Shown: positions 1 through 6,966 of the stretch, piece after piece
How the letters are laid out: the number at the start of each line of letters is the position of its first letter
Position numbering within the stretch: position 1 is the stretch's first letter
Origin: Enterobacteria phage KhF2
Length of the DNA: 64,000 bases
Sequence record: KT184314.1
Direction: 5' to 3' (one strand)
Made by a program: the position numbers and the translations under genes
Notes under the pieces: model-generated
Databases searched by the model: none
What the model was told of the DNA's origin: nothing
Seen by the model: the letters and a program-made list of their open reading frames with translations, nothing else

Positions 1-688
1 TATCACGAGCTTTACAAACATCATCAAAACAGACTAATAAGATACCTGATAAGAAACCATTGATATTCGTTTTCAGGTACTCTGCAATAAGAGNNNATTN
101 TTNTNCNNTCATCTGCACAACTTCATCTGCATAAGCTGTAATCTTCGAAATACCTTCATTAATCTTACTAACAGCTTGGTTAGCTAAATCAGAAATAGTA
201 TCAAGACCTTTGTCAATAGCATCTTGTAAGTCACTTAATACATCATTAACGACATCTAGTGCACTGTTAATTGTGTCAATAGCTTTTTGACCATATTCTG
301 TAGCAACGCCCATAATACCACTAAACGGTGTACAGCCAACTTGTTCCCCTGCTGCACCCATAACATTGGAATACCCCTTTGCTACCTGCATACGTGATGA
401 AAACTCATCAATAGACTTTTGACCATAGTCTGTTAAGGTCTTAGTAGTCGCTGTAGTGCTTGTAAGGCTTGTTGTAAAGCTGTTTAGAAGGACTGTTGTA
501 AGTCCAGCAGCAACAAGTTTCTCCTTCATTGTAGGGTCTGTTACAGAGCTAATAGAACTTACAAGTGATGTAGAGGCAGCTACGGTTCCACCGAGAACTG
601 CTGCACCAGTAATAAGGGGATTAGAAAACCCTCTACCGGTTTTTAAGAGATTAAAAATCTCCTTACCTTGTTCTGTCATCTCTTTCAT
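1..688 (-). CDS. partial CDS, hypothetical Ala/Thr/Ser-rich protein (N-terminal part; 3' end lies beyond window start)
   Basis: Continuous minus-strand frame from ATG at 686-688 (MKEMTEQGKEIFNLL...); interrupted by N-run at 94-108; the listed plus-strand ORF 456..701 is its antisense shadow. Confidence 0.4.
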   Translation of the reverse strand, partial: MKEMTEQGKEIFNLLKTGRGFSNPLITGAAVLGGTVAASTSLVSSISSVTDPTMKEKLVAAGLTTVLLNSFTTSLTSTTATTKTLTDYGQKSIDEFSSRMQVAKGYSNVMGAAGEQVGCTPFSGIMGVATEYGQKAIDTINSALDVVNDVLSDLQDAIDKGLDTISDLANQAVSKINEGISKITAYADEVVQMXXXXXXLIAEYLKTNINGFLSGILLVCFDDVCKARD

Positions 689-704
689 TAAGCACCTTTG
701 AAAT

Positions 705-780
705 TGGTAGTCCAGTGGGATTTGAACCCTCTTCTCATGTTTTTCAGACACGCGCTTTAACCATATAAGCTACTTGGACT
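705..780 (-). tRNA. tRNA-Phe (anticodon GAA)
   Basis: Hand-folded cloverleaf; T-loop TTCAAAT; anticodon loop CTGAAAA; CCA encoded. Confidence 0.6.
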
Positions 781-786
781 ATAAAT

Positions 787-862
787 TGGGGTGACCTACG
801 GGATTTGAACCCGTATAGACCATGTTCACAGCATGGGTCATTACCATTTATGATAAGGCCAC
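787..862 (-). tRNA. tRNA-His (anticodon GTG)
   Basis: Anticodon stem CCATG/CATGG with loop CTGTGAA; T-arm CGGG-TTCAAAT-CCCG; CCA encoded. Confidence 0.6.
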
Positions 863-893
863 ATTTAAGGACTCTCGTAAGAATCCTTAGAAG

Positions 894-969
894 TGGCAGC
901 GGCATAAGGATTTGAACCTTAATAGGACAGCTTCAGAGACTGTTGCATTGCCAGTTATGCTATACCGCT
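894..969 (-). tRNA. tRNA-Gln (anticodon CTG)
   Basis: Acceptor AGCGGTA/TGCCGCT, D-stem GCAT/ATGC, anticodon loop CTCTGAA, G73, CCA encoded. Confidence 0.6.
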
Positions 970-974
970 AAATT

Positions 975-1054
975 TGGTACTCCATATCGGATTCGAACCG
1001 ATACATAACACAGATTTTAAGTCTGGCCTCTCTGCCAATTGGAGTAATGGAGCA
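975..1054 (-). tRNA. tRNA-like, anticodon probably TAA (Leu by anticodon), atypical short variable loop
   Basis: T-arm ATCGG-TTCGAAT-CCGAT and CCA present; anticodon loop CTTAAAA on a 4 bp stem; D-arm weak. Confidence 0.35.
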
Positions 1055-1055
1055 T

Positions 1056-1131
1056 TGGCGGGGGATGTTGGAATTGAACCAACTTCTTCGATTTCAAAGA
1101 CCGAGGTTTTAACCTTGTAAACTAATCCCCT
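1056..1131 (-). tRNA. tRNA-Gln (anticodon TTG)
   Basis: Acceptor AGGGGAT/ATCCCCC with G73; D-stem GTTT/AAAC; anticodon stem TCGGT/ATCGA with loop CTTTGAA. Confidence 0.55.
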
Positions 1132-1139
1132 TTAAATCT

Positions 1140-1697
1140 TTACTTTCTCAGTGGATGAATAAAGAATGCCAACATAACTCTTTCCCTTGAGAATGCTCTT
1201 TCTTCTGGGACAACACTTTTTAGTTTCCATCCAATATAAATTCTCCAGTAAAACTGTTTACCAAAGACTTTAATTGATGGGATAAAGGCGAATAATCCCC
1301 AAGCATTACTGTTCCACATTAGGAGATAACCAGTCTGATTATCTTCAGGGTCAGAACTTACGTTGATATTACCTTTCCACTTAGTAACATCTTTTACATC
1401 TCTTCCTAATACATGGTAAGAGAAGTTATAAGCTTTGTTTCTCCAGAGCCATCCGACTCTTTGCATGTAGACGCCTAGTTTACCAATCCATCTAATATTA
1501 GCCCATCTTTTAACGTGACCTTCATCACCATCAATTGGGTTGTCATATGTCTCCATCCATCTGAACCCGAAAGGTAAGCGTCCTTTCTTCTCACTGTAGA
1601 ATGGAACTACAAAAGGTGCTAAGATAACTGCTAAGATTGCTGCAAATGGCTCTAACAAAGCTAAGAAAATCCATGAAACATATTTTAAGTATCTCAT
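1140..1697 (-). CDS. hypothetical membrane protein (185 aa) embedded in tRNA array
   Basis: ORF track; hydrophobic N-terminus; start overlaps stop of upstream ORF (ATGA). Confidence 0.45.
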   Translation of the reverse strand: MRYLKYVSWIFLALLEPFAAILAVILAPFVVPFYSEKKGRLPFGFRWMETYDNPIDGDEGHVKRWANIRWIGKLGVYMQRVGWLWRNKAYNFSYHVLGRDVKDVTKWKGNINVSSDPEDNQTGYLLMWNSNAWGLFAFIPSIKVFGKQFYWRIYIGWKLKSVVPEERAFSRERVMLAFFIHPLRK

Positions 1698-1936
1698 TGT
1701 CTAACCCTCGTAAGGAGGTAAGCATTATTATTTGTTTCTGAGCTTTCTGGTAACATTGTCTCAAAATTGACGCTTTTAAGTTGTCTTCCACCAAAGCAAT
1801 GACCAATAAATCTTTCTACTTTTATTGGGTCGCATTCCCATCCGACTTTCAAGAAAATGTGGGTATCTATAGTGGGAACCCTTACAAACTCAATACTATT
1901 GGGATTTTCATGTTCAACGACGATTAATGTTTGCAT
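1694..1936 (-). CDS. hypothetical protein (80 aa)
   Basis: ORF track; translationally coupled to 1140..1697. Confidence 0.4.
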   Translation of the reverse strand: MQTLIVVEHENPNSIEFVRVPTIDTHIFLKVGWECDPIKVERFIGHCFGGRQLKSVNFETMLPESSETNNNAYLLTRVRQ

Positions 1937-1954
1937 AAATTCCTCTTGCTTATC

Positions 1955-2030
1955 TGGCGCAGGATAAGGGATTCGAACCCCTATTAACAGCTTCGTAGAC
2001 TGTTGCTCTATCCATTTGAACTAATCCTGC
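1955..2030 (-). tRNA. tRNA-Arg (anticodon ACG)
   Basis: Acceptor GCAGGAT/ATCCTGC, anticodon stem ACAGT/GCTGT with loop CTACGAA, T-loop TTCGAAT, CCA encoded. Confidence 0.6.
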
Positions 2031-2035
2031 AAAAT

Positions 2036-2113
2036 TGGTGTTCCAAGACGGATTCGAACCGTCACTAGTACAAGGTTTGAGCTTGCATCCTCTGCCAATT
2101 GGGATACTGGAAC
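2036..2113 (-). tRNA. tRNA with anticodon CAA (Leu by anticodon) but class-I-like short variable loop
   Basis: Acceptor GTTCCAG/TTGGAAC with A73; anticodon stem GCAAG/CTTGT with loop CTCAAAC; only a 6 nt variable region. Confidence 0.45.
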
Positions 2114-2114
2114 A

Positions 2115-2193
2115 TGGTACTCACTAAAGGACTTGAACCTTTTTCTTCATCTTGTAAGGGTGATGTTTTACCATATAAACTAAGCGAGTATGA
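2115..2193 (-). tRNA. tRNA-Val (anticodon TAC)
   Basis: Acceptor ACTCGCT/AGTGAGT, D-stem GTTT/AAAC, anticodon loop CTTACAA, A73, CCA encoded. Confidence 0.55.
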
Positions 2194-2195
2194 AA

Positions 2196-2283
2196 GAGGT
2201 CTGGAGTTGTGCCGCTAACTCAACTCCGTGGAATTTGTTACGGTCTTCAGTTGACTCAAAGCGGTCTTTCACTTGACCTCTGA
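2196..2283. ncRNA. structured RNA candidate / non-canonical tRNA-like element
   Basis: Closing stem GAGGTC...GACCTC plus internal hairpins (GGAGTTG...CAACTCC; CCGT...ACGG); no canonical T-loop found. Confidence 0.25.
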
Positions 2284-2285
2284 AT

Positions 2286-2362
2286 TGGTGCTGCTCACAG
2301 GACTCGAACCTGCATTTCCATCCTTACAAGGGATGTGTAATAGCCAATTATACGAAAGCAGC
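2286..2362 (-). tRNA. tRNA-Thr (anticodon TGT)
   Basis: Anticodon stem CATCC/GGATG with loop CTTGTAA; T-loop TTCGAGT; CCA encoded. Confidence 0.6.
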
Positions 2363-2368
2363 ATTGTT

Positions 2369-2443
2369 TGGAGCATCCAGAGGGAATCGAACCCTCAACC
2401 TCAGTTTGGAAGACTGTAATTTTCCCGTTTAAACTATGGATGC
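2369..2443 (-). tRNA. tRNA-Gly (anticodon TCC)
   Basis: Acceptor GCATCCA/TGGATGC; anticodon loop CTTCCAA; T-arm GAGGG-TTCGATT-CCCTC. Confidence 0.6.
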
Positions 2444-2449
2444 ACTAAT

Positions 2450-2526
2450 TGGTGGAGAAGCAGGGAATTGAACCCTGTACTTAAGTTTGCAAAACTTATG
2501 TTTTAACCATGTAAACTACATCCCCA
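2450..2526 (-). tRNA. tRNA-Ala (anticodon TGC)
   Basis: G3:U70 wobble pair in acceptor stem (Ala identity element); anticodon stem TAAGT/ACTTA with loop TTTGCAA. Confidence 0.6.
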
Positions 2527-2531
2527 ATGTC

Positions 2532-2607
2532 TGGTACAGGTGGAGGGAATTGAACCCATCGTCTTACTGATTAAGAGTCAGCCGCATAACCATTTTGCTA
2601 CACCTGC
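2532..2607 (-). tRNA. tRNA-Lys (anticodon CTT)
   Basis: Acceptor GCAGGTG/CACCTGT; anticodon stem GCTGA/TCAGT with loop CTCTTAA; T-stem only 3 clean pairs. Confidence 0.5.
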
Positions 2608-2614
2608 ATTAATT

Positions 2615-2692
2615 TGGTAGGAGACAAGGGATTCGAACCCTCAAACACCAACTTCTAAGGATGGTAGGTTTACCAATTACCATCAATCTCCC
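2615..2692 (-). tRNA. tRNA with anticodon TAG (Leu by anticodon), short variable loop
   Basis: T-arm GAGGG-TTCGAAT-CCCTT; anticodon stem CCATC/GTTGG (one mismatch) with loop CTTAGAA; A73. Confidence 0.4.
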
Positions 2693-2948
2693 ATTAAATC
2701 TTTTTAGAGAACTTCTAAGAACCTGAGCAACAAGGTTCCACAACAAGCGACTAATAACCTTAGAAGCCCTCTAAAAAGACCTAAATAGGTCTTTGCATAG
2801 TCTTGTTTAATCCGGTGACTAGAACCTTTGGAGAGCTTGATATTATCTCTTCTCCGTGACACCTACTAGGTGCTTTGACAGTGTACGACAATACACGAGG
2901 GATAAACCGACAATGCGAACAAGCATGGACGGAGTAAATCTTATTAGG

Positions 2949-3036
2949 CGGTAAGTAAAGGAGTCGAACCCTCACCGTATCTCTACAGTGGCAACTGTTT
3001 TCAAGACAGTTTGGCTACCATTAGCCGCTACCTACC
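2949..3036 (-). tRNA. tRNA-Ser (anticodon TGA), class II with long variable arm
   Basis: 88 nt; acceptor GGTAGGT/ACTTACC, G73; anticodon stem ACTGT/ACAGT with loop CTTGAAA; long extra arm; CCA not encoded. Confidence 0.55.
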
Positions 3037-3049
3037 CCTAATAAGACTT

Positions 3050-3132
3050 TGGCATGGGACGGAGGAGTTGAACCCCTTTGAAACGGTTTTGGAGGCCGTT
3101 GCTCATGCCTTAGAGTCTTAACATCGTCCCAT
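3050..3132 (-). tRNA. tRNA-like, possible Trp (anticodon CCA), atypical 5' region
   Basis: Good T-arm and acceptor ATGGGAC/GTCCCAT with G73; anticodon-like stem-loop ACGGC-CTCCAAA-ACCGT; about 7 extra nt between acceptor and D-arm. Confidence 0.3.
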
Positions 3133-3274
3133 ATTATAATTCGAAGCTTACCCTGTTATCTCAACACTGTCAAGCTTCTTCTCAGATTATTTACATGTTC
3201 TGGAAAACATGAGATACAGACCACCTCCCTACAGGAAGACCCGCTAAGGCCGTCTAAGTAATCTGCTAACTATT

Positions 3275-3356
3275 TGGTCGAGGCGGCAGGACTCGAACCC
3301 GCATACTCCACTTACTCGGTTAACGGCGGTTTAGAAGACCGCTGAGATACGCCCCG
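3275..3356 (-). tRNA. tRNA-like, possible Arg (anticodon TCT), atypical architecture
   Basis: Acceptor CGGGGCG/CGCCTCG, T-arm GCGGG-TTCGAGT-CCTGC, perfect stem-loop GCGGT-CTTCTAA-ACCGC; D-arm not identifiable, 23 nt between anticodon arm and T-arm. Confidence 0.3.
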
Positions 3357-3604
3357 TAATTATCTTTAAAGACTCTCTTAGAAAGCCCTTAAAGATGCCC
3401 ACCTTATTAATCATACCGTGGGCGAGTACGCCAAATTCTTTAATGAGGGATTGGAAGACCTCACTGGTGTTTAGCCTATCAAGCTACTGCCAGAAAAACA
3501 TTGTCGTTTGCATTTATTTTAAATTTGCAAAATAGACGCTACGCAACGAAAACTAAGGTTACTATAAAGCAGTCACATCTCAATGTCAACAACTTTATTG
3601 AAAT

Positions 3605-3680
3605 TGGTACTGGTAGGTGGAATCGAACCACCGATGTTCCCTTATCAGGGGAGTGTTATAACCTTCTTAACTATACCAGC
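3605..3680 (-). tRNA. tRNA-Ile (anticodon GAT)
   Basis: Acceptor GCTGGTA/TACCAGT; T-arm GGTGG-TTCGATT-CCACC; anticodon loop CTGATAA. Confidence 0.55.
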
Positions 3681-3681
3681 T

Positions 3682-3758
3682 TGGAGGTTCAGATGGGAAT
3701 CGAACCCACATTCATAGGGCTTATGAGACCCTTGCATTACCTTATCTGCGACTGAACC
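3682..3758 (-). tRNA. tRNA-Met (anticodon CAT; elongator, initiator or Ile2 not distinguished)
   Basis: Acceptor GGTTCAG/CTGAACC; anticodon stem AGGGT/GCCCT with loop CTCATAA. Confidence 0.55.
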
Positions 3759-3762
3759 ATAT

Positions 3763-3838
3763 TGGTAGAAGTGGAGGGATTCGAACCCATCGCCTGTCAG
3801 ATTAAAAGTCTGCCGCATCACCATTCTGCTACACTTCC
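3763..3838 (-). tRNA. tRNA-Lys (anticodon TTT)
   Basis: Acceptor GGAAGTG/CACTTCT; anticodon stem CAGA/TCTG with loop CTTTTAA. Confidence 0.5.
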
Positions 3839-4035
3839 ATTAAATTATCTTTGTAGATAAGCTACCCAGACTTGCTTAAGGTCTGTAGCGATGTGCCTTG
3901 TTGGGTTTAAATCTAGAATTTACCCTTTCACCCTTTGTGGTCGCATACTCACAGGTAAGCTTAATAACTTATCTACAAAGATAATTACCAGACCGTTGTT
4001 TATCATCTTAAGTGCTACCATTACACCAACTCGAC

Positions 4036-4063
4036 ATCTGCCGAGTGAAGGAATCGAACCTTC
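4036..4063 (-). pseudogene. tRNA 3' fragment (T-arm plus acceptor 3' strand without a matching 5' half)
   Basis: GAAGG-TTCGATT-CCTTC T-arm followed by ACTCGGC-A; no complementary 5' acceptor strand within 100 nt. Confidence 0.25.
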
Positions 4064-4270
4064 GCCTTTTCTTTACCGGAGAAATAGATTGTTTAAGTTT
4101 TGCTGTAAACGGTCTTCTGTAAATTTGTTGAGCCAGACCAAGTTTTAAATTTTTTCAAAATTAAATTGGCTTGAAATTTTCATACGTTCTTGATGTATTT
4201 GGTCTTCTGCTCCTTTAAAGAATACTCGTAAGAACTCTTTAAGGGAGGGGCTAAATAGCCCTCTCAAAAT

Positions 4271-4347
4271 TGGCGGCTACGATGAGACTTGAACTCACAT
4301 CATCTCCCGTGACAGGGGAGTATTTTCTCCAGTTAAACTACATAGCC
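4271..4347 (-). tRNA. tRNA-Asp (anticodon GTC)
   Basis: Acceptor GGCTATG/CGTAGCC with G73; anticodon stem CTCCC/GGGAG with loop CTGTCAC. Confidence 0.6.
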
Positions 4348-4352
4348 TTTAT

Positions 4353-4440
4353 TGGTGTGCCGTGTAGGAGTCGAACCTACCGAGTCTCAATGACAAGGGA
4401 TTTACAGTCCCCACCGCTACCATCTACGGGATAACGACAC
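4353..4440 (-). tRNA. tRNA-Tyr (anticodon GTA), class II
   Basis: 88 nt; anticodon loop CTGTAAA; long variable arm; T-arm GTAGG-TTCGACT-CCTAC. Confidence 0.6.
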
Positions 4441-4448
4441 ATTTAATT

Positions 4449-4525
4449 TGGCGGTTAGTCAGGGATTCGAACCCTGTGCCATTCGCTTAACAGGCGACCG
4501 CACATACCTTATGTGCTTCCTAACC
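4449..4525 (-). tRNA. tRNA-Asn (anticodon GTT)
   Basis: D-arm GCAC-ATAAGGTAT-GTGC; anticodon loop CTGTTAA; G73. Confidence 0.55.
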
Positions 4526-4602
4526 TTAATACATTGCCAGACCGTGTTTTTTCTTTTATCCGCAAAAAGTATTTTGTTGCTGAATACGGTCTTCTGCAAA
4601 AT

Positions 4603-4679
4603 TGGAGGCGGGTGCAGGAGTCGAACCTGCCGATACCATGCTAATGAGACATGTGAGACGCCCTTTCTCTATACCCGCA
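4603..4679 (-). tRNA. tRNA, anticodon probably CAT (second Met/Ile2-type), fold imperfect
   Basis: T-arm GCAGG-TTCGACT-CCTGC; candidate anticodon stem CATGT/GCATG with loop CTCATTA (unusual T37). Confidence 0.4.
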
Positions 4680-4768
4680 ATTCTTAATGACCAGACCAAA
4701 TATCTTCTTTGTCCGATTAACTTTCAGATGAGTAGATTAAGTTTGCTGTAATTGGTCTTCTGTCAAAA

Positions 4769-4847
4769 CTGGCGTTCCAGAAGGGATTTGAACCCTCAGA
4801 TATCCACTTTGAAAGAGTGGTGACTTTACCATTTTGTCTACTGGAAC
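4769..4847 (-). tRNA. tRNA-Glu (anticodon TTC)
   Basis: Acceptor GTTCCAG/CTGGAAC with G73; anticodon stem CCACT/AGTGG with loop CTTTCAA. Confidence 0.55.
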
Positions 4848-4854
4848 ATTAATT

Positions 4855-4930
4855 TGGTCTCTGTTGGAGGACTTGAACCTCCGGCCTTACCGCCCCAAAC
4901 GGAACGCTCTACCAAGCTGAGCTAAACAGA
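4855..4930 (-). tRNA. tRNA-Pro (anticodon TGG)
   Basis: Canonical D-arm AGCTCAGCTTGGTAGAGC; anticodon loop TTTGGGG; T-arm GGAGG-TTCAAGT-CCTCC. Confidence 0.6.
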
Positions 4931-5096
4931 GATAAACTTTTCAAACTCTATGTAACAACTTTAACATTATTTTTTAGTGGTTGTCAAGAACTTTTTTAAA
5001 ATATTTTTCAGTATCTTAGAAAAGCTCTCATTTCGTTTCTATGTAGAACATATTAAAGGGTATTAAACACATTGTCAATACCCTTTTTAAAACTTT

Positions 5097-6512
5097 TTAC
5101 CAGATGTAACGGTCAATCATTACTGCTTTGAGCATTACGCTGATTGGGTCAAACTTCTCACCACCAAGCAGAGCTTTTAAAGTGGCTGGAGAGAAACCAG
5201 ATACCATTGCTACACCGTTATCCTTAACAGACACTTCGCAAGTACCACTACGGTTTGCTAAGTACCAGAATACCAGTTGTGGCATTTCGTATCCAGCTTT
5301 TTTGTACTTACTACGAATTGCTTCAAAGTTTGTACGACCATTTGCACCGTCAACCTGATTGAACTCCATATCAGAGAAGATGATAAGCTTACTTGGCATA
5401 TCTTTCTGAGTCAAGTTGTTTCTCTTACCTGTCTCAAGGATGCGGTCAAAAGCTGCTTGTAAGTTAGTTGAACCGTATTCAACATGTCGCATTACTTGAC
5501 GGTGACGGTTCTTTAAATCGCCACTCAGTTCGATGAAATGAGGGTTTGTTGAATAAACCATTAACTCGTTCTTAAAGCAACCTGTATTGCGTTCTGCTAC
5601 ATACAAGGCAAGTGATACACCAATATCAAGGGCAGTAATTGAGCCAAAATTCACCCAAGACATTGAACTTGAAACATCAGACATACATAGAATGTTTTCA
5701 CCCTCTGCCATCCAGTTTGGTAGTGCTTTCCACTGCTCATTAGCAACATCTGCATTACCATACTTAACAGATTTAATCACATCGTATGGGTAAACAGCAC
5801 CAGCATTAATCTTAGCCTCACCCTTTGATAATGACTCGATGTAAGCTTTGTAGCGTTCTCCATCTTTACGGTTAAACAGTTTTTGGTAACGTGCAGCAGC
5901 AAGTGAAGGAATCTTACTGTAGTCAATCTTACCAAACTCATTAGCAGAGATTTTTTGCTCAACTGTATCAGATAGTGCAGACAACAGTGTGCGGTACTCT
6001 TTCTCACTTAAGTTTGCAAACTTGCAGAAACGTTTTACAAACTGCTTATGACGTGGTTTGACTCGTGGTAACCACTTAGCTGCCAAACCTGCTGTTGCAG
6101 GGTCTAGTAATGCTGCTTCTAAATGTTTGAAGGCATCTGTCTCGAAACGAGTACCTACGAAGATTTTGAAGTCATCAAAACGACCAAGTTCTGCAATCTT
6201 ATCCATAATACGAAGAACCTGTGTAGGCTCTAAAACTTTGTCTTCGATTGCTTGAAGTAAAACAGTTCGGAAAGCTTTACGCTCACCCATACCTTCTCGT
6301 ACATCTCGCATATGCAGTAAAATACGAACTGCAACATCAACACCCTCACGCAAAGCTTTGTAGAACAGGTCTGGTAAGATTTCTACATTGCTACGGCTTG
6401 AACCAGCAGCTTTGTAAAAGTCTACCAGAGCAGACATTGATGAAGTATGGTTTACAGCACCATTTTCAGTTCGACCTGCATGAAGGTGCGCATGTTTAAA
6501 TAATTCGCTCAT
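5097..6512 (-). CDS. vWA-like domain protein (putative MIDAS motif D-x-S-x-S)
   Basis: 471 aa ORF; motif LCMSDVSSSM resembles a von Willebrand A metal-ion site; no other recognisable motif. Confidence 0.4.
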   Translation of the reverse strand: MSELFKHAHLHAGRTENGAVNHTSSMSALVDFYKAAGSSRSNVEILPDLFYKALREGVDVAVRILLHMRDVREGMGERKAFRTVLLQAIEDKVLEPTQVLRIMDKIAELGRFDDFKIFVGTRFETDAFKHLEAALLDPATAGLAAKWLPRVKPRHKQFVKRFCKFANLSEKEYRTLLSALSDTVEQKISANEFGKIDYSKIPSLAAARYQKLFNRKDGERYKAYIESLSKGEAKINAGAVYPYDVIKSVKYGNADVANEQWKALPNWMAEGENILCMSDVSSSMSWVNFGSITALDIGVSLALYVAERNTGCFKNELMVYSTNPHFIELSGDLKNRHRQVMRHVEYGSTNLQAAFDRILETGKRNNLTQKDMPSKLIIFSDMEFNQVDGANGRTNFEAIRSKYKKAGYEMPQLVFWYLANRSGTCEVSVKDNGVAMVSGFSPATLKALLGGEKFDPISVMLKAVMIDRYIW

Positions 6513-6594: not shown

Positions 6595-6966
6595 TTATTT
6601 TTTGAGGGTTGCAACAGCAGAGAACGTTGGTTTGTTATCTGTCTGAGACTGACCGCCGTTATCAGGGGTCTTCTTAGTGTCTGCTGCAATTGCTTTCATC
6701 TCACCTGCTGAGTGAGTCATGATAGTTTTACCGACCTCAATCATACTCTTGATGGTTACGTCATCTGTGTTTAACCCGAACTCTGCAAGCTTAGCAGCAT
6801 CCCTTGTAACAATCGCTTCAAATAACTTTGCAGCAAACTCAGCAGAATTGTCAATGGTCAGTTGAGCTTTTACAAGTGAGCTTTTGTTACGAGAGCCTTT
6901 TGGTCTTCCAGATGGGTTTCCAGACTGGCCTTTTTTAAACTGGCCTTTGTTTGTTCTGTTTTTCAT
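6595..6966 (-). CDS. hypothetical protein with N-terminal basic GNPSGRPKG motif
   Basis: ORF track; motif KGQSGNPSGRPKGSRN. Confidence 0.5.
   Translation of the reverse strand: MKNRTNKGQFKKGQSGNPSGRPKGSRNKSSLVKAQLTIDNSAEFAAKLFEAIVTRDAAKLAEFGLNTDDVTIKSMIEVGKTIMTHSAGEMKAIAADTKKTPDNGGQSQTDNKPTFSAVATLKK

Follow-up and report, generated by a model that had tools for sequence, protein, structure and literature searches.

A conserved structured RNA closed by a 24-bp stem in the tRNA cluster of Felix O1-like phages: a probable processing stem and a candidate partner of a Ro60-like protein

The DNA analysed here is a stretch of 64,000 nt from Enterobacteria phage KhF2 (KT184314.1), referred to below as the window, and our subject is a 144-nt element (positions 3843–3986) bounded by an inverted repeat within its tRNA gene cluster. 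The window belongs to a Felix O1-like phage (Felixounavirus). When 2 kb around the element were used as query, 274 phage records matched, the majority at 90–99 % identity. ARAGORN places 23 tRNA genes in the window, all on the minus strand, and the relevant transcript is therefore that of the minus strand, a point missed by an earlier note on this DNA which had drawn attention to the repeat. The tRNA operon begins at tRNA-Pro (4931), just 3′ of a 471-aa minus-strand gene (6512→5097), and promoter-like sites lie near the operon start (4987–4958 and 5078–5050, minus strand, consensus scan). Promoter and terminator consensus scans placed nothing on the element itself, the nearest minus-strand promoter-like sites being these two and one at 3589–3561. 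Read along the minus strand, tRNA-Asp (4347→4271) is followed by two small hairpins, a hairpin RNA (4209→4133), a tRNA-like unit (4122→3985) and the element (3986→3843), after which come 4 nt (UAAU), tRNA-Lys(UUU) (3838→3763), tRNA-Met and tRNA-Ile. Between tRNA-Lys (3763–3838) and tRNA-Asp (4271–4347) neither ARAGORN nor Rfam, the latter scanned over positions 1–6500, 3835–4275 and 3985–4128 at permissive expect values (E), finds a canonical tRNA. The earlier note had said as much of positions 3840–4035, and this stands for canonical tRNAs; from 3985 on, however, that interval runs into the tRNA-like unit, an element of YrlA type spanning 3985–4122. The parts of the element are as follows.

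3843–3986, minus strand: the whole element, a predicted structured non-coding RNA of 144 nt, read 3986→3843, lying 4 nt upstream of tRNA-Lys(UUU) and abutting the 3′ end of the YrlA-like unit.
3963–3986, minus strand: 5′ strand of the closing stem P1, AAUUAUCUUUGUAGAUAAGUUAUU, pairing with 3843–3866.
3843–3866, minus strand: 3′ strand of P1, GGUAGCUUAUCUACAAAGAUAAUU, followed by UAAU and then the 5′ end of tRNA-Lys.
3867–3885, minus strand: H4, a hairpin of 5 bp that stacks directly on P1; positions 3872–3880 form its conserved loop of 9 nt, CUUAAGCAA.
3903–3925, minus strand: H2, an internal hairpin of the minimum-energy fold, its tip bearing the invariant AUUCUAGAUU / CUAG motif.
3928–3959, minus strand: H1, an internal hairpin of the minimum-energy fold, with the loop AGUAUGCG.

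The repeat had been described in the earlier note as a perfect 15-bp inverted repeat around 107 nt. Its left arm, ATCTTTGTAGATAAG, does lie at 3847–3861; the right arm, CTTATCTACAAAGAT, occupies 3968–3982 rather than 3969–3983, one base off, which makes the spacer 106 nt long instead of 107. The arms are perfectly complementary over more than the 15 bp noted, namely over 19 bp (3843–3861 with 3968–3986); a repeat finder carries it to 22 nt at 95 %, and with G·U pairs allowed on the minus strand 24 consecutive pairs join 3963–3986 to 3843–3866. Throughout the window this is the sole perfect inverted repeat of at least 14 bp with a spacer of at most 200 nt. Of 100 simulations of the window by a first-order Markov model, 1 % contained a 15-bp repeat (mean 0.01), which disposes of the concern, raised in the earlier note, that such repeats might be common by chance in this context: the repeat is real and non-random, and is not a chance product of AT-rich DNA. 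The comparison of folding energy with shuffled controls proposed in that note gave −48.3 kcal/mol for the minus-strand RNA, with z = −5.8 against dinucleotide shuffles, as compared with z = −4.7 for the plus strand; energies for the fold of the whole element on the minus strand ranged from −47.8 to −48.3 kcal/mol. The G·U pairs at the top of P1 exist only on the minus strand, and R1, a covariance model derived from the element, gives 152.9 bits for the minus strand versus 50.9 bits for the plus strand. P1 encloses several hairpins, of which H4 is the 3′-most. The flanks of the element (…GGUCUGGU / AAUU… and …AAUU / UAAU) show no direct duplication.

Far from lacking conservation, which would have spoken against the repeat, the element occupies the same position in about 240 genomes of Ounavirinae, and no genome with an empty site was found among these approximately 240 related phage records. 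An A-type element is present in about 189 phage records at 94.7–100 % identity, and a diverged B-type element, of which only the ends and a central block can be aligned, lies at the same place in about 60 records (Mooglevirus, Suspvirus and some Salmonella phages); the spacer between tRNA-Lys and tRNA-Asp measures about 430–456 nt throughout the records of both types. Distant syntenic contigs were recovered by way of the neighbouring Ro-like protein (53–63 % protein identity). In the loci L087–L093, which are metagenomic, the spacer just 5′ of tRNA-Lys folds with a long terminal stem of 18–26 bp, and a hairpin bearing a 9-nt loop abuts the 3′ strand of that stem. The loop of H4 occurs as CUUAAGCAA, CUUUAGCAA, CCUUAGCAA, CCUAUGCAA or CUUGAACAA, and its stem covaries (CAGAC/GUCUG, CAAACC/GGUUUG, CAGUC/GACUG, GUUC/GAAC, AAAGUC/GACUUU and GAGAC/GUCUC). 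In every lineage the element is 141–166 nt long. The CUAG core of H2 is invariant across types A, B and L087/L090, with an ambiguous pairing register, and the loop of H1 is common to the window and L087/L090, where its stem differs (GUG/CAC versus GGGG/CCCC, read by eye); the conservation of H1 and H2 was judged by inspection only, without a statistical test.

Covariation was assessed on an 11-sequence MAFFT alignment comprising types A and B together with L087/L090, for which RNAalifold returned a consensus of P1 (23 pairs) and H4 (5 pairs). Standard pairs fill 99.0 % of the 301 cells (28 pairs, 11 sequences), and 10 of the 28 pairs, in 31 cells, have changed on both sides; for the 23 pairs of P1 alone, 98.8 % of cells are paired and eight pairs have changed on both sides. 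None of 500 column shuffles reached either the observed percentage paired or the observed covariation score, and when the 3′ partner was slid by 1–3 columns pairing fell to 32–43 %, with no or one compensated pair. Only three of the 301 cells are unpaired on the minus strand, while 30 cells hold G·U or U·G pairs there that are A·C mismatches on the plus strand. The compensatory changes and the confinement of G·U pairs to the minus strand indicate that what is selected is a helix in the RNA of tRNA sense, and not the DNA sequence. A structured RNA was among the options that the earlier note had offered for a long-stem hairpin, and it is the one sustained by these data: the closing stem and an internal hairpin covary, G·U pairs are tolerated on the minus strand alone, and the position is the same across several genera of Ounavirinae. 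There is thus little doubt that the repeat is the 24-bp closing stem of a conserved structured RNA read from the minus strand.

The element does not stand alone. Several further structured units lie in the cluster, and the gene that precedes the tRNA operon encodes a protein with a Ro60 fold; they are listed here.

3985–4122, minus strand: a YrlA-like, circularly permuted tRNA mimic with a bulged closing helix, unannotated; its parts are an anticodon-arm-like hairpin (4068–4084), a T arm (4047–4063), a closed 7-bp acceptor hairpin (4029–4046) and a D arm (4012–4026).
4133–4209, 4537–4596 and 4691–4762, minus strand: three short hairpin RNAs between tRNAs, with a common closing helix CAGAAGACC…GGUCUGG, an asymmetric bulge and then UUACAGCAA.
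2694–2784, minus strand: a long-stem RNA, paralogue of P1, 91 nt long, with a stem of 27 bp and 2 nt between its end and tRNA-Leu(UAG).
3357–3396, minus strand: a third hairpin, of 17 bp, whose ends UCUUU…AAAGAUAAUU are like those of P1 and the paralogue, directly 5′ of a tRNA-like gene at 3278–3356.
5097–6512, minus strand: gene for the Ro60-fold protein of 471 aa (Pfam DUF2828 plus DUF7788/vWA), orthologue of Bas63 gp130, directly upstream of the tRNA operon.

The domain order of the unit at 3985–4122 agrees with the published layout of YrlA, namely a closing helix, an anticodon-arm-like ‘V’ hairpin, a T arm, a closed acceptor hairpin and a D arm (Chen et al., 2014; PMC4201824). Its T arm (GAAGGUUCGAUUCCUUC) and D arm (GUGUAAUGGUAGCAC) are both invariant and its acceptor hairpin covaries in three of seven pairs; Rfam gave a partial tRNA match of 22 bits over the anticodon-like arm, the T arm and the 3′ strand of the acceptor, no match to RF02553 (YrlA) at permissive E-values, and otherwise only weak matches at chance level. 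The closing helix of this unit, CAGA-AGACCG…CGGUCU-GG followed by UUACAGCAA, recurs in the three short hairpin RNAs: four copies of the motif AGACC-N5-CAGCAA stand on the cluster's minus strand, a count reached in none of 100 shuffles. The H4 loop CCUUAAGCAA resembles this motif, and it is suggestive that H4, (C)CUUAAGCAA flanked by CAGAC/GUCUG, may be a minimal version of it. With its filters off, R1 also recovers the paralogue at 2694–2784 (28.8 bits, E = 2e-5). The paralogue is conserved in L087/L090, its stem covarying, and the stem of its counterpart there, GUCUUUGUAGAUGGCUAC…, is closely like P1 of the window; the loop of the paralogue, UUGUUGCU, and the AGCAA(CAA) motif found in the hairpin RNAs and in H4 are complementary.

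Some other features of the cluster were noted in passing. The gene at 3278–3356 (minus strand) is a non-canonical tRNA missed by ARAGORN, with an Rfam tRNA match of 31.7 bits, above the gathering score; its counterpart in Bas63 is annotated as tRNA-Arg(AGA), and its variable region appears enlarged. A second tRNA-like sequence that ARAGORN does not call, at 3056–3130 (minus strand), has a weak Rfam match to tRNA-Sec (23 bits) and seems to have an acceptor stem, a T arm and a CCA-containing loop. Sub-threshold Rfam matches to ‘Plastid-ycf2 5′UTR’ on the plus strand of tRNA genes (for example 2371–2443 and 3607–3680) are artefacts of tRNA-derived sequence in that Rfam model. The best sigma-70-like match of the region, TTGACA-17-TATAGT (11 of 12 positions; 3589–3561, minus strand), falls within the tRNA cluster, 3′ of tRNA-Ile, and hints at internal promoters for distal sub-clusters. 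An HNH endonuclease gene stands between tRNA-Ser and tRNA-Ile in L002 (phage heid, 771–1169), Alf5 and mio, and is absent from the window.

The element lies about 1.1 kb downstream of the gene at 5097–6512 and on the same strand. The AlphaFold model of the gene product has a mean predicted local distance difference test score (pLDDT) of 89, and the top 11 Foldseek matches in the PDB are all Ro60/TROVE proteins, with template modelling (TM) scores of about 0.5–0.65 and including the Ro60 of Thermus phage phiLo; vWA domains come lower in the match list. Homologues are present in 691 phage records, those of mycobacteriophages being annotated ‘Ro-like RNA binding protein’. In two mycobacteriophages Rfam YrlA matches occur in the gap directly behind the Ro-like gene (38–40 bits, E ~1e-5, below the gathering score), and nine other DUF2828 loci gave no YrlA match at E ≤ 0.01. 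At L012, L013, L016, L018, L020, L022, L023, L033 and L037–L041, which are viral contigs of unrelated phage lineages, a DUF2828 gene (about 40–45 % protein identity) has a same-strand tRNA array 60–700 nt behind it, and at L042, L043, L046 and L054 a transfer-messenger RNA gene lies approximately 4.5–5 kb downstream of the DUF2828 gene. This arrangement of genes suggests a general functional link between the DUF2828 family and phage tRNA arrays.

Bas63 is itself a Felixounavirus and its element is 95.9 % identical to that of the window. According to the Bas63 preprint, gp130 resembles Ro60 and counters the ppl defence, and Y RNAs may hide among the downstream ‘tRNA genes’. Two of the open reading frames (ORFs) annotated in Bas63 are relevant here, since g138, of 36 aa, lies wholly inside the element and g137 lies inside the YrlA-like unit. 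In the PhageMaP tables insertions in g130 score about +0.6 to +1.1 elsewhere and −2.87, −3.35 and −3.65 on the ppl host, where g137 scores +0.63, +0.55 and +0.73. Barcode insertion in g138 gave +1.02, +1.03 and +0.31 on S17 and +0.56, +0.62 and +1.07 on MG1655, and its scores were also positive on TerY-P and AVAST4. The DUF5681 protein gene that precedes the Ro60-fold gene (6595–6966, minus strand; g129 in Bas63) is strongly required in all conditions examined, and gp130 only on the ppl host. One other gene of the cluster, g148 (tRNA-Ala), scored −2.75, −1.45 and −2.04 on the ppl sheet, with large variance, and +0.83, +0.68 and +0.64 on S17, the only other sheet where its row was examined; it is the only gene of the tRNA cluster besides gp130 that is clearly negative on ppl.

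Our working hypothesis is that the element gives rise to a processed accessory RNA. Its RNA would be made as part of the tRNA precursor, the 3′ end would be set by the RNase P cut at the 5′ end of tRNA-Lys, 4 nt downstream, and host RNase III probably cuts the near-perfect, AU-rich duplex of 22–24 bp, thereby punctuating the precursor and releasing the RNA. The stem at 2694–2784 lies in a like position before tRNA-Leu, and the hairpin at 3357–3396 before the tRNA-like gene. Each of these three stems heads a tRNA or a tRNA sub-cluster, and near-perfect AU-rich duplexes of 17–27 bp are classical substrates of RNase III; together these points argue that P1 probably doubles as a processing stem, as do the stems flanking 16S and 23S rRNA. 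The large conserved interior of the element suggests in addition that excision yields more than a by-product. Once freed it may persist as a stable accessory RNA and, together with the YrlA-like unit and the three hairpin RNAs carrying the AGCAA motif, may be one of several RNAs that partner the phage's Ro60-like protein in the manner of Y RNAs. To this reading as a whole we assign a probability of roughly 0.45. The functional link between the element and the Ro60-like protein, taken by itself, is tentative.

Several observations weigh against this hypothesis. The element lacks the Ro-binding motif (GNCGAA(N)G / CGAA, near the 5′ end) by which bacterial and phage Y RNAs are known, its P1 is without the bulge of their helix, and no Rfam family, YrlA and Y_RNA included, matches 3843–3986 at E values up to 10. 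The connection drawn between H4 and the hairpin RNAs depends on a short motif and is statistically unsupported. No R1 copy was found near the DUF2828 genes of 75 distant phage loci, a search in which the sensitivity of R1 was low: applied to the window and to 83 loci (the 75 distant DUF2828 loci L012–L086 and eight closer ones, L087–L094), R1 found only the window and L087/L090, all of which had been used to build it, and the homologues identified by hand in L088, L089, L092 and L093 reached only E = 0.02–1 even when filters were off. Because known homologues score no better than this, absence from the distant lineages is uninformative; nor did a count of stems of at least 13 bp within 2.5 kb of the DUF2828 genes at the 75 loci discriminate (218 downstream versus 188 upstream), the criterion being too loose. 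In PhageMaP, g138 insertion was neutral or positive on S17, MG1655, TerY-P, AVAST4 and ppl hosts (on ppl +0.87, +0.39 and +0.18), so that the element must be regarded as dispensable in the laboratory and as not individually needed for the only known gp130 phenotype; its neutrality on ppl, where gp130 is required, speaks indirectly against an obligatory partnership of the two. These scores are to be read with the caveats that they stem from a single insertion site and that five or six candidate RNAs may be redundant with one another.

The main rival to a processed accessory RNA is a module that acts purely in cis, to process or insulate, and whose excised piece has no function. The stems at 3843–3986, 2694–2784 and 3357–3396 would then be RNase III or RNase E/P signals that split the long precursor by sub-cluster, or would prevent misfolding of the neighbouring tRNAs. 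Such a module would fit the three long AU-rich hairpins with their common core UCUUU...AAAGAU, each ending 2–4 nt before the 5′ end of a tRNA or tRNA-like gene, as it would the general expectation that a perfect duplex of at least 22 bp is a substrate for RNase III, and it would be in keeping with the neutrality of insertions inside the element in every PhageMaP condition examined. It sits poorly, however, with the retention of the H4 loop sequence, on a covarying stem, where the flanking protein is only 53–56 % identical, and with the similar retention of the H1 loop AGUAUGCG and the CUAG tip; moreover, the length of the element is constant at 141–166 nt although the paralogue needs an interior of only about 40 nt. 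On balance we think a purely cis-acting role rather unlikely. A regulatory or decoy RNA that stands on its own, with no relation to the Ro60-like protein, and in which H4 might for example mimic an anticodon arm against a tRNA-targeting nuclease, or its loop might pair with another RNA, appears more improbable still. The element always adjoins tRNA-Lys(UUU), and tRNA-Lys(UUU) is a frequent target of anticodon nucleases; H4 (CAGAC-CUUAAGCAA-GUCUG) is like the anticodon arm of tRNA-Lys (CAGA-CUUUUAA-UCUG), and the paralogue loop UUGUUGCU could pair with the AGCAA motif. Phage tRNA clusters are, furthermore, thought to counter tRNA-depleting defences (Bas63 preprint). Yet the H4 loop has 9 nt, not 7, chance could account for both the likeness to an anticodon arm and the 5-nt complementarity, given how short they are, and the PhageMaP sheets examined contain no defence-specific phenotype for g138. 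As to tRNA identity proper, neither ARAGORN nor the Rfam tRNA model yields a cloverleaf on the element.

Explanations that do not involve an RNA fare worse. Besides a structured RNA, the earlier note had entertained a site-specific recombination or homing target and a miniature inverted-repeat insertion, and neither of these survives. A DNA-level role, be it as the terminal repeats of a miniature inverted-repeat transposable element, as a recombination or homing target or as a cruciform, might be read into a perfect 19-bp inverted repeat around some 100 bp in a cluster into which homing endonuclease genes have been inserted in some relatives. But the HNH insertions of those relatives are located elsewhere in the cluster, between tRNA-Ser and tRNA-Ile, and the element is at the same locus in essentially all relatives, without presence/absence polymorphism across about 240 related genomes; the window holds one full copy and no dispersed ones, the flanks bear no target-site duplication, and the arms change in a compensatory way, with G·U pairs on one strand only. 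Blastn with the element gave no match in 5,426 complete E. coli genomes, on which ground mimicry of a host sequence was rejected as well. We regard any DNA-level explanation as very improbable, and the view that the region codes for protein and that the repeat is incidental as scarcely credible. The latter could appeal to the annotation of ORF94 in Felix O1 and of gp138 and gp137 in Bas63 at this place, and to an 85-aa plus-strand ORF at 3891–4148 in the window; this ORF, ORF94 and gp138 have no Pfam match, however, the boundaries vary between records, close relatives carry single-nucleotide indels inside the ORF (+1 in heid, three separate −1 in EC6), and substitutions preserve the helix rather than codons. 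Both explanations are essentially excluded.

Returning to a processed accessory RNA, it is tempting to speculate beyond it. The ‘tRNA cluster’ of the Ounavirinae might be a Ro60 ribonucleoprotein (RNP) operon, with a divergent Ro60 (gp130) and a battery of client RNAs that use the H4 handle or kissing loops, although as a proposal for the whole cluster this is distinctly unlikely. The clients would be the permuted tRNA mimic, the three mini hairpin RNAs (a bulged helix, then UUACAGCAA) and two long-stem RNAs, among them the element, which would represent a new class of Y-like adaptor with the AGCAA of the H4 loop as the handle recognised by the protein. Alternatively, the H4 loop might kiss the UUGCU loop of the paralogue and so tether the RNP to host RNases or damaged tRNAs during defence-triggered tRNA cleavage. 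Were the RNAs of such an operon redundant, the neutrality of single insertions would be accounted for.

As yet unannotated, the element has no match among described RNA families, and its kin are to be sought among the stable non-tRNA RNAs of phage tRNA clusters or the Y-like RNAs; no description of its RNA was found in the Felix O1 genome paper, the Y RNA papers or the Bas63 papers. Felix O1-like phages are classical diagnostic phages and current candidates for therapy, and their tRNA region has so far been annotated only as tRNAs and spurious small ORFs. To these can now be added an RNA gene that has exact coordinates and is backed by covariation. The gene forms part of a cluster of six or more structured RNAs other than tRNAs, which follows directly on the gene for a Ro60-like protein whose anti-defence phenotype has been demonstrated, and what was a vague published suggestion of Y RNAs among the Bas63 ‘tRNA genes’ is thereby turned into concrete candidates. 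If the link to Ro60 is true, the reach of Ro60/Y-RNA biology would come to include phage counter-defence and a large new protein family; if it is false, the element would document the punctuation of phage tRNA precursors by conserved processing stems, and several genome annotations would need correction.

Among known RNAs, the most distant likeness is to the Class I RNAs of Dictyostelium (RF01414), in which a short terminal stem is followed by CCUUACAGCAA, as the stem of the phage hairpin RNAs is by UUACAGCAA, with CCUUAAGCAA in H4. The RF01414 matches are weak (24 and 12.8 bits, against a gathering score of 41.5 bits), and since the organisms are unrelated the likeness is almost certainly one of convergence or chance. 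Closer in setting are rnaC and rnaD of phage T4 (species 1 and 2 RNAs), which like the element are non-tRNA RNAs within a phage tRNA cluster. These are RNAs of about 120–140 nt that are co-transcribed with tRNAs, freed by the tRNA-processing machinery and dispensable in the laboratory. Only the genomic setting is shared, as sequence and fold differ: T4 rnaC has a tRNA-like fold with a T arm, unlike the element, T4 has no Ro60-like gene, and R1 with filters off found nothing above noise in the T4 tRNA region, so that homology to rnaC/rnaD was rejected.

With the Y RNAs (YrlA/YrlB, Yrn1; RF02553) the element has more in common. Y RNA genes lie within about 1–2 kb of a gene for a Ro60-fold protein on the same strand, and the element, at 1.1 kb and on the same strand, is well inside a limit of 4 kb; in both, the two termini form a long stem around a structured module, here the covarying 24-bp P1, and several different RNAs are encoded at one locus. 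The element moreover adjoins a unit whose architecture is truly that of YrlA, comprising T arm, closed acceptor hairpin and D arm. It differs in lacking the tRNA-like domain of YrlA itself and in having a partner gene of DUF2828 type, not Pfam TROVE as for Y RNAs; g138 insertion does not phenocopy loss of gp130 on ppl, and binding of the Y-RNA type is put forward here as a proposal only. P1 may also be set beside the RNase III stems that flank 16S and 23S rRNA. The RNA that it encloses is only about 96 nt long and its cleavage is presumed, but, like those stems, P1 is a long-range duplex of at least 20 bp in the polycistronic precursor of stable RNAs, forming uninterrupted double-stranded RNA (19 perfect pairs, 24 with G·U) on the sense strand of the tRNA operon.

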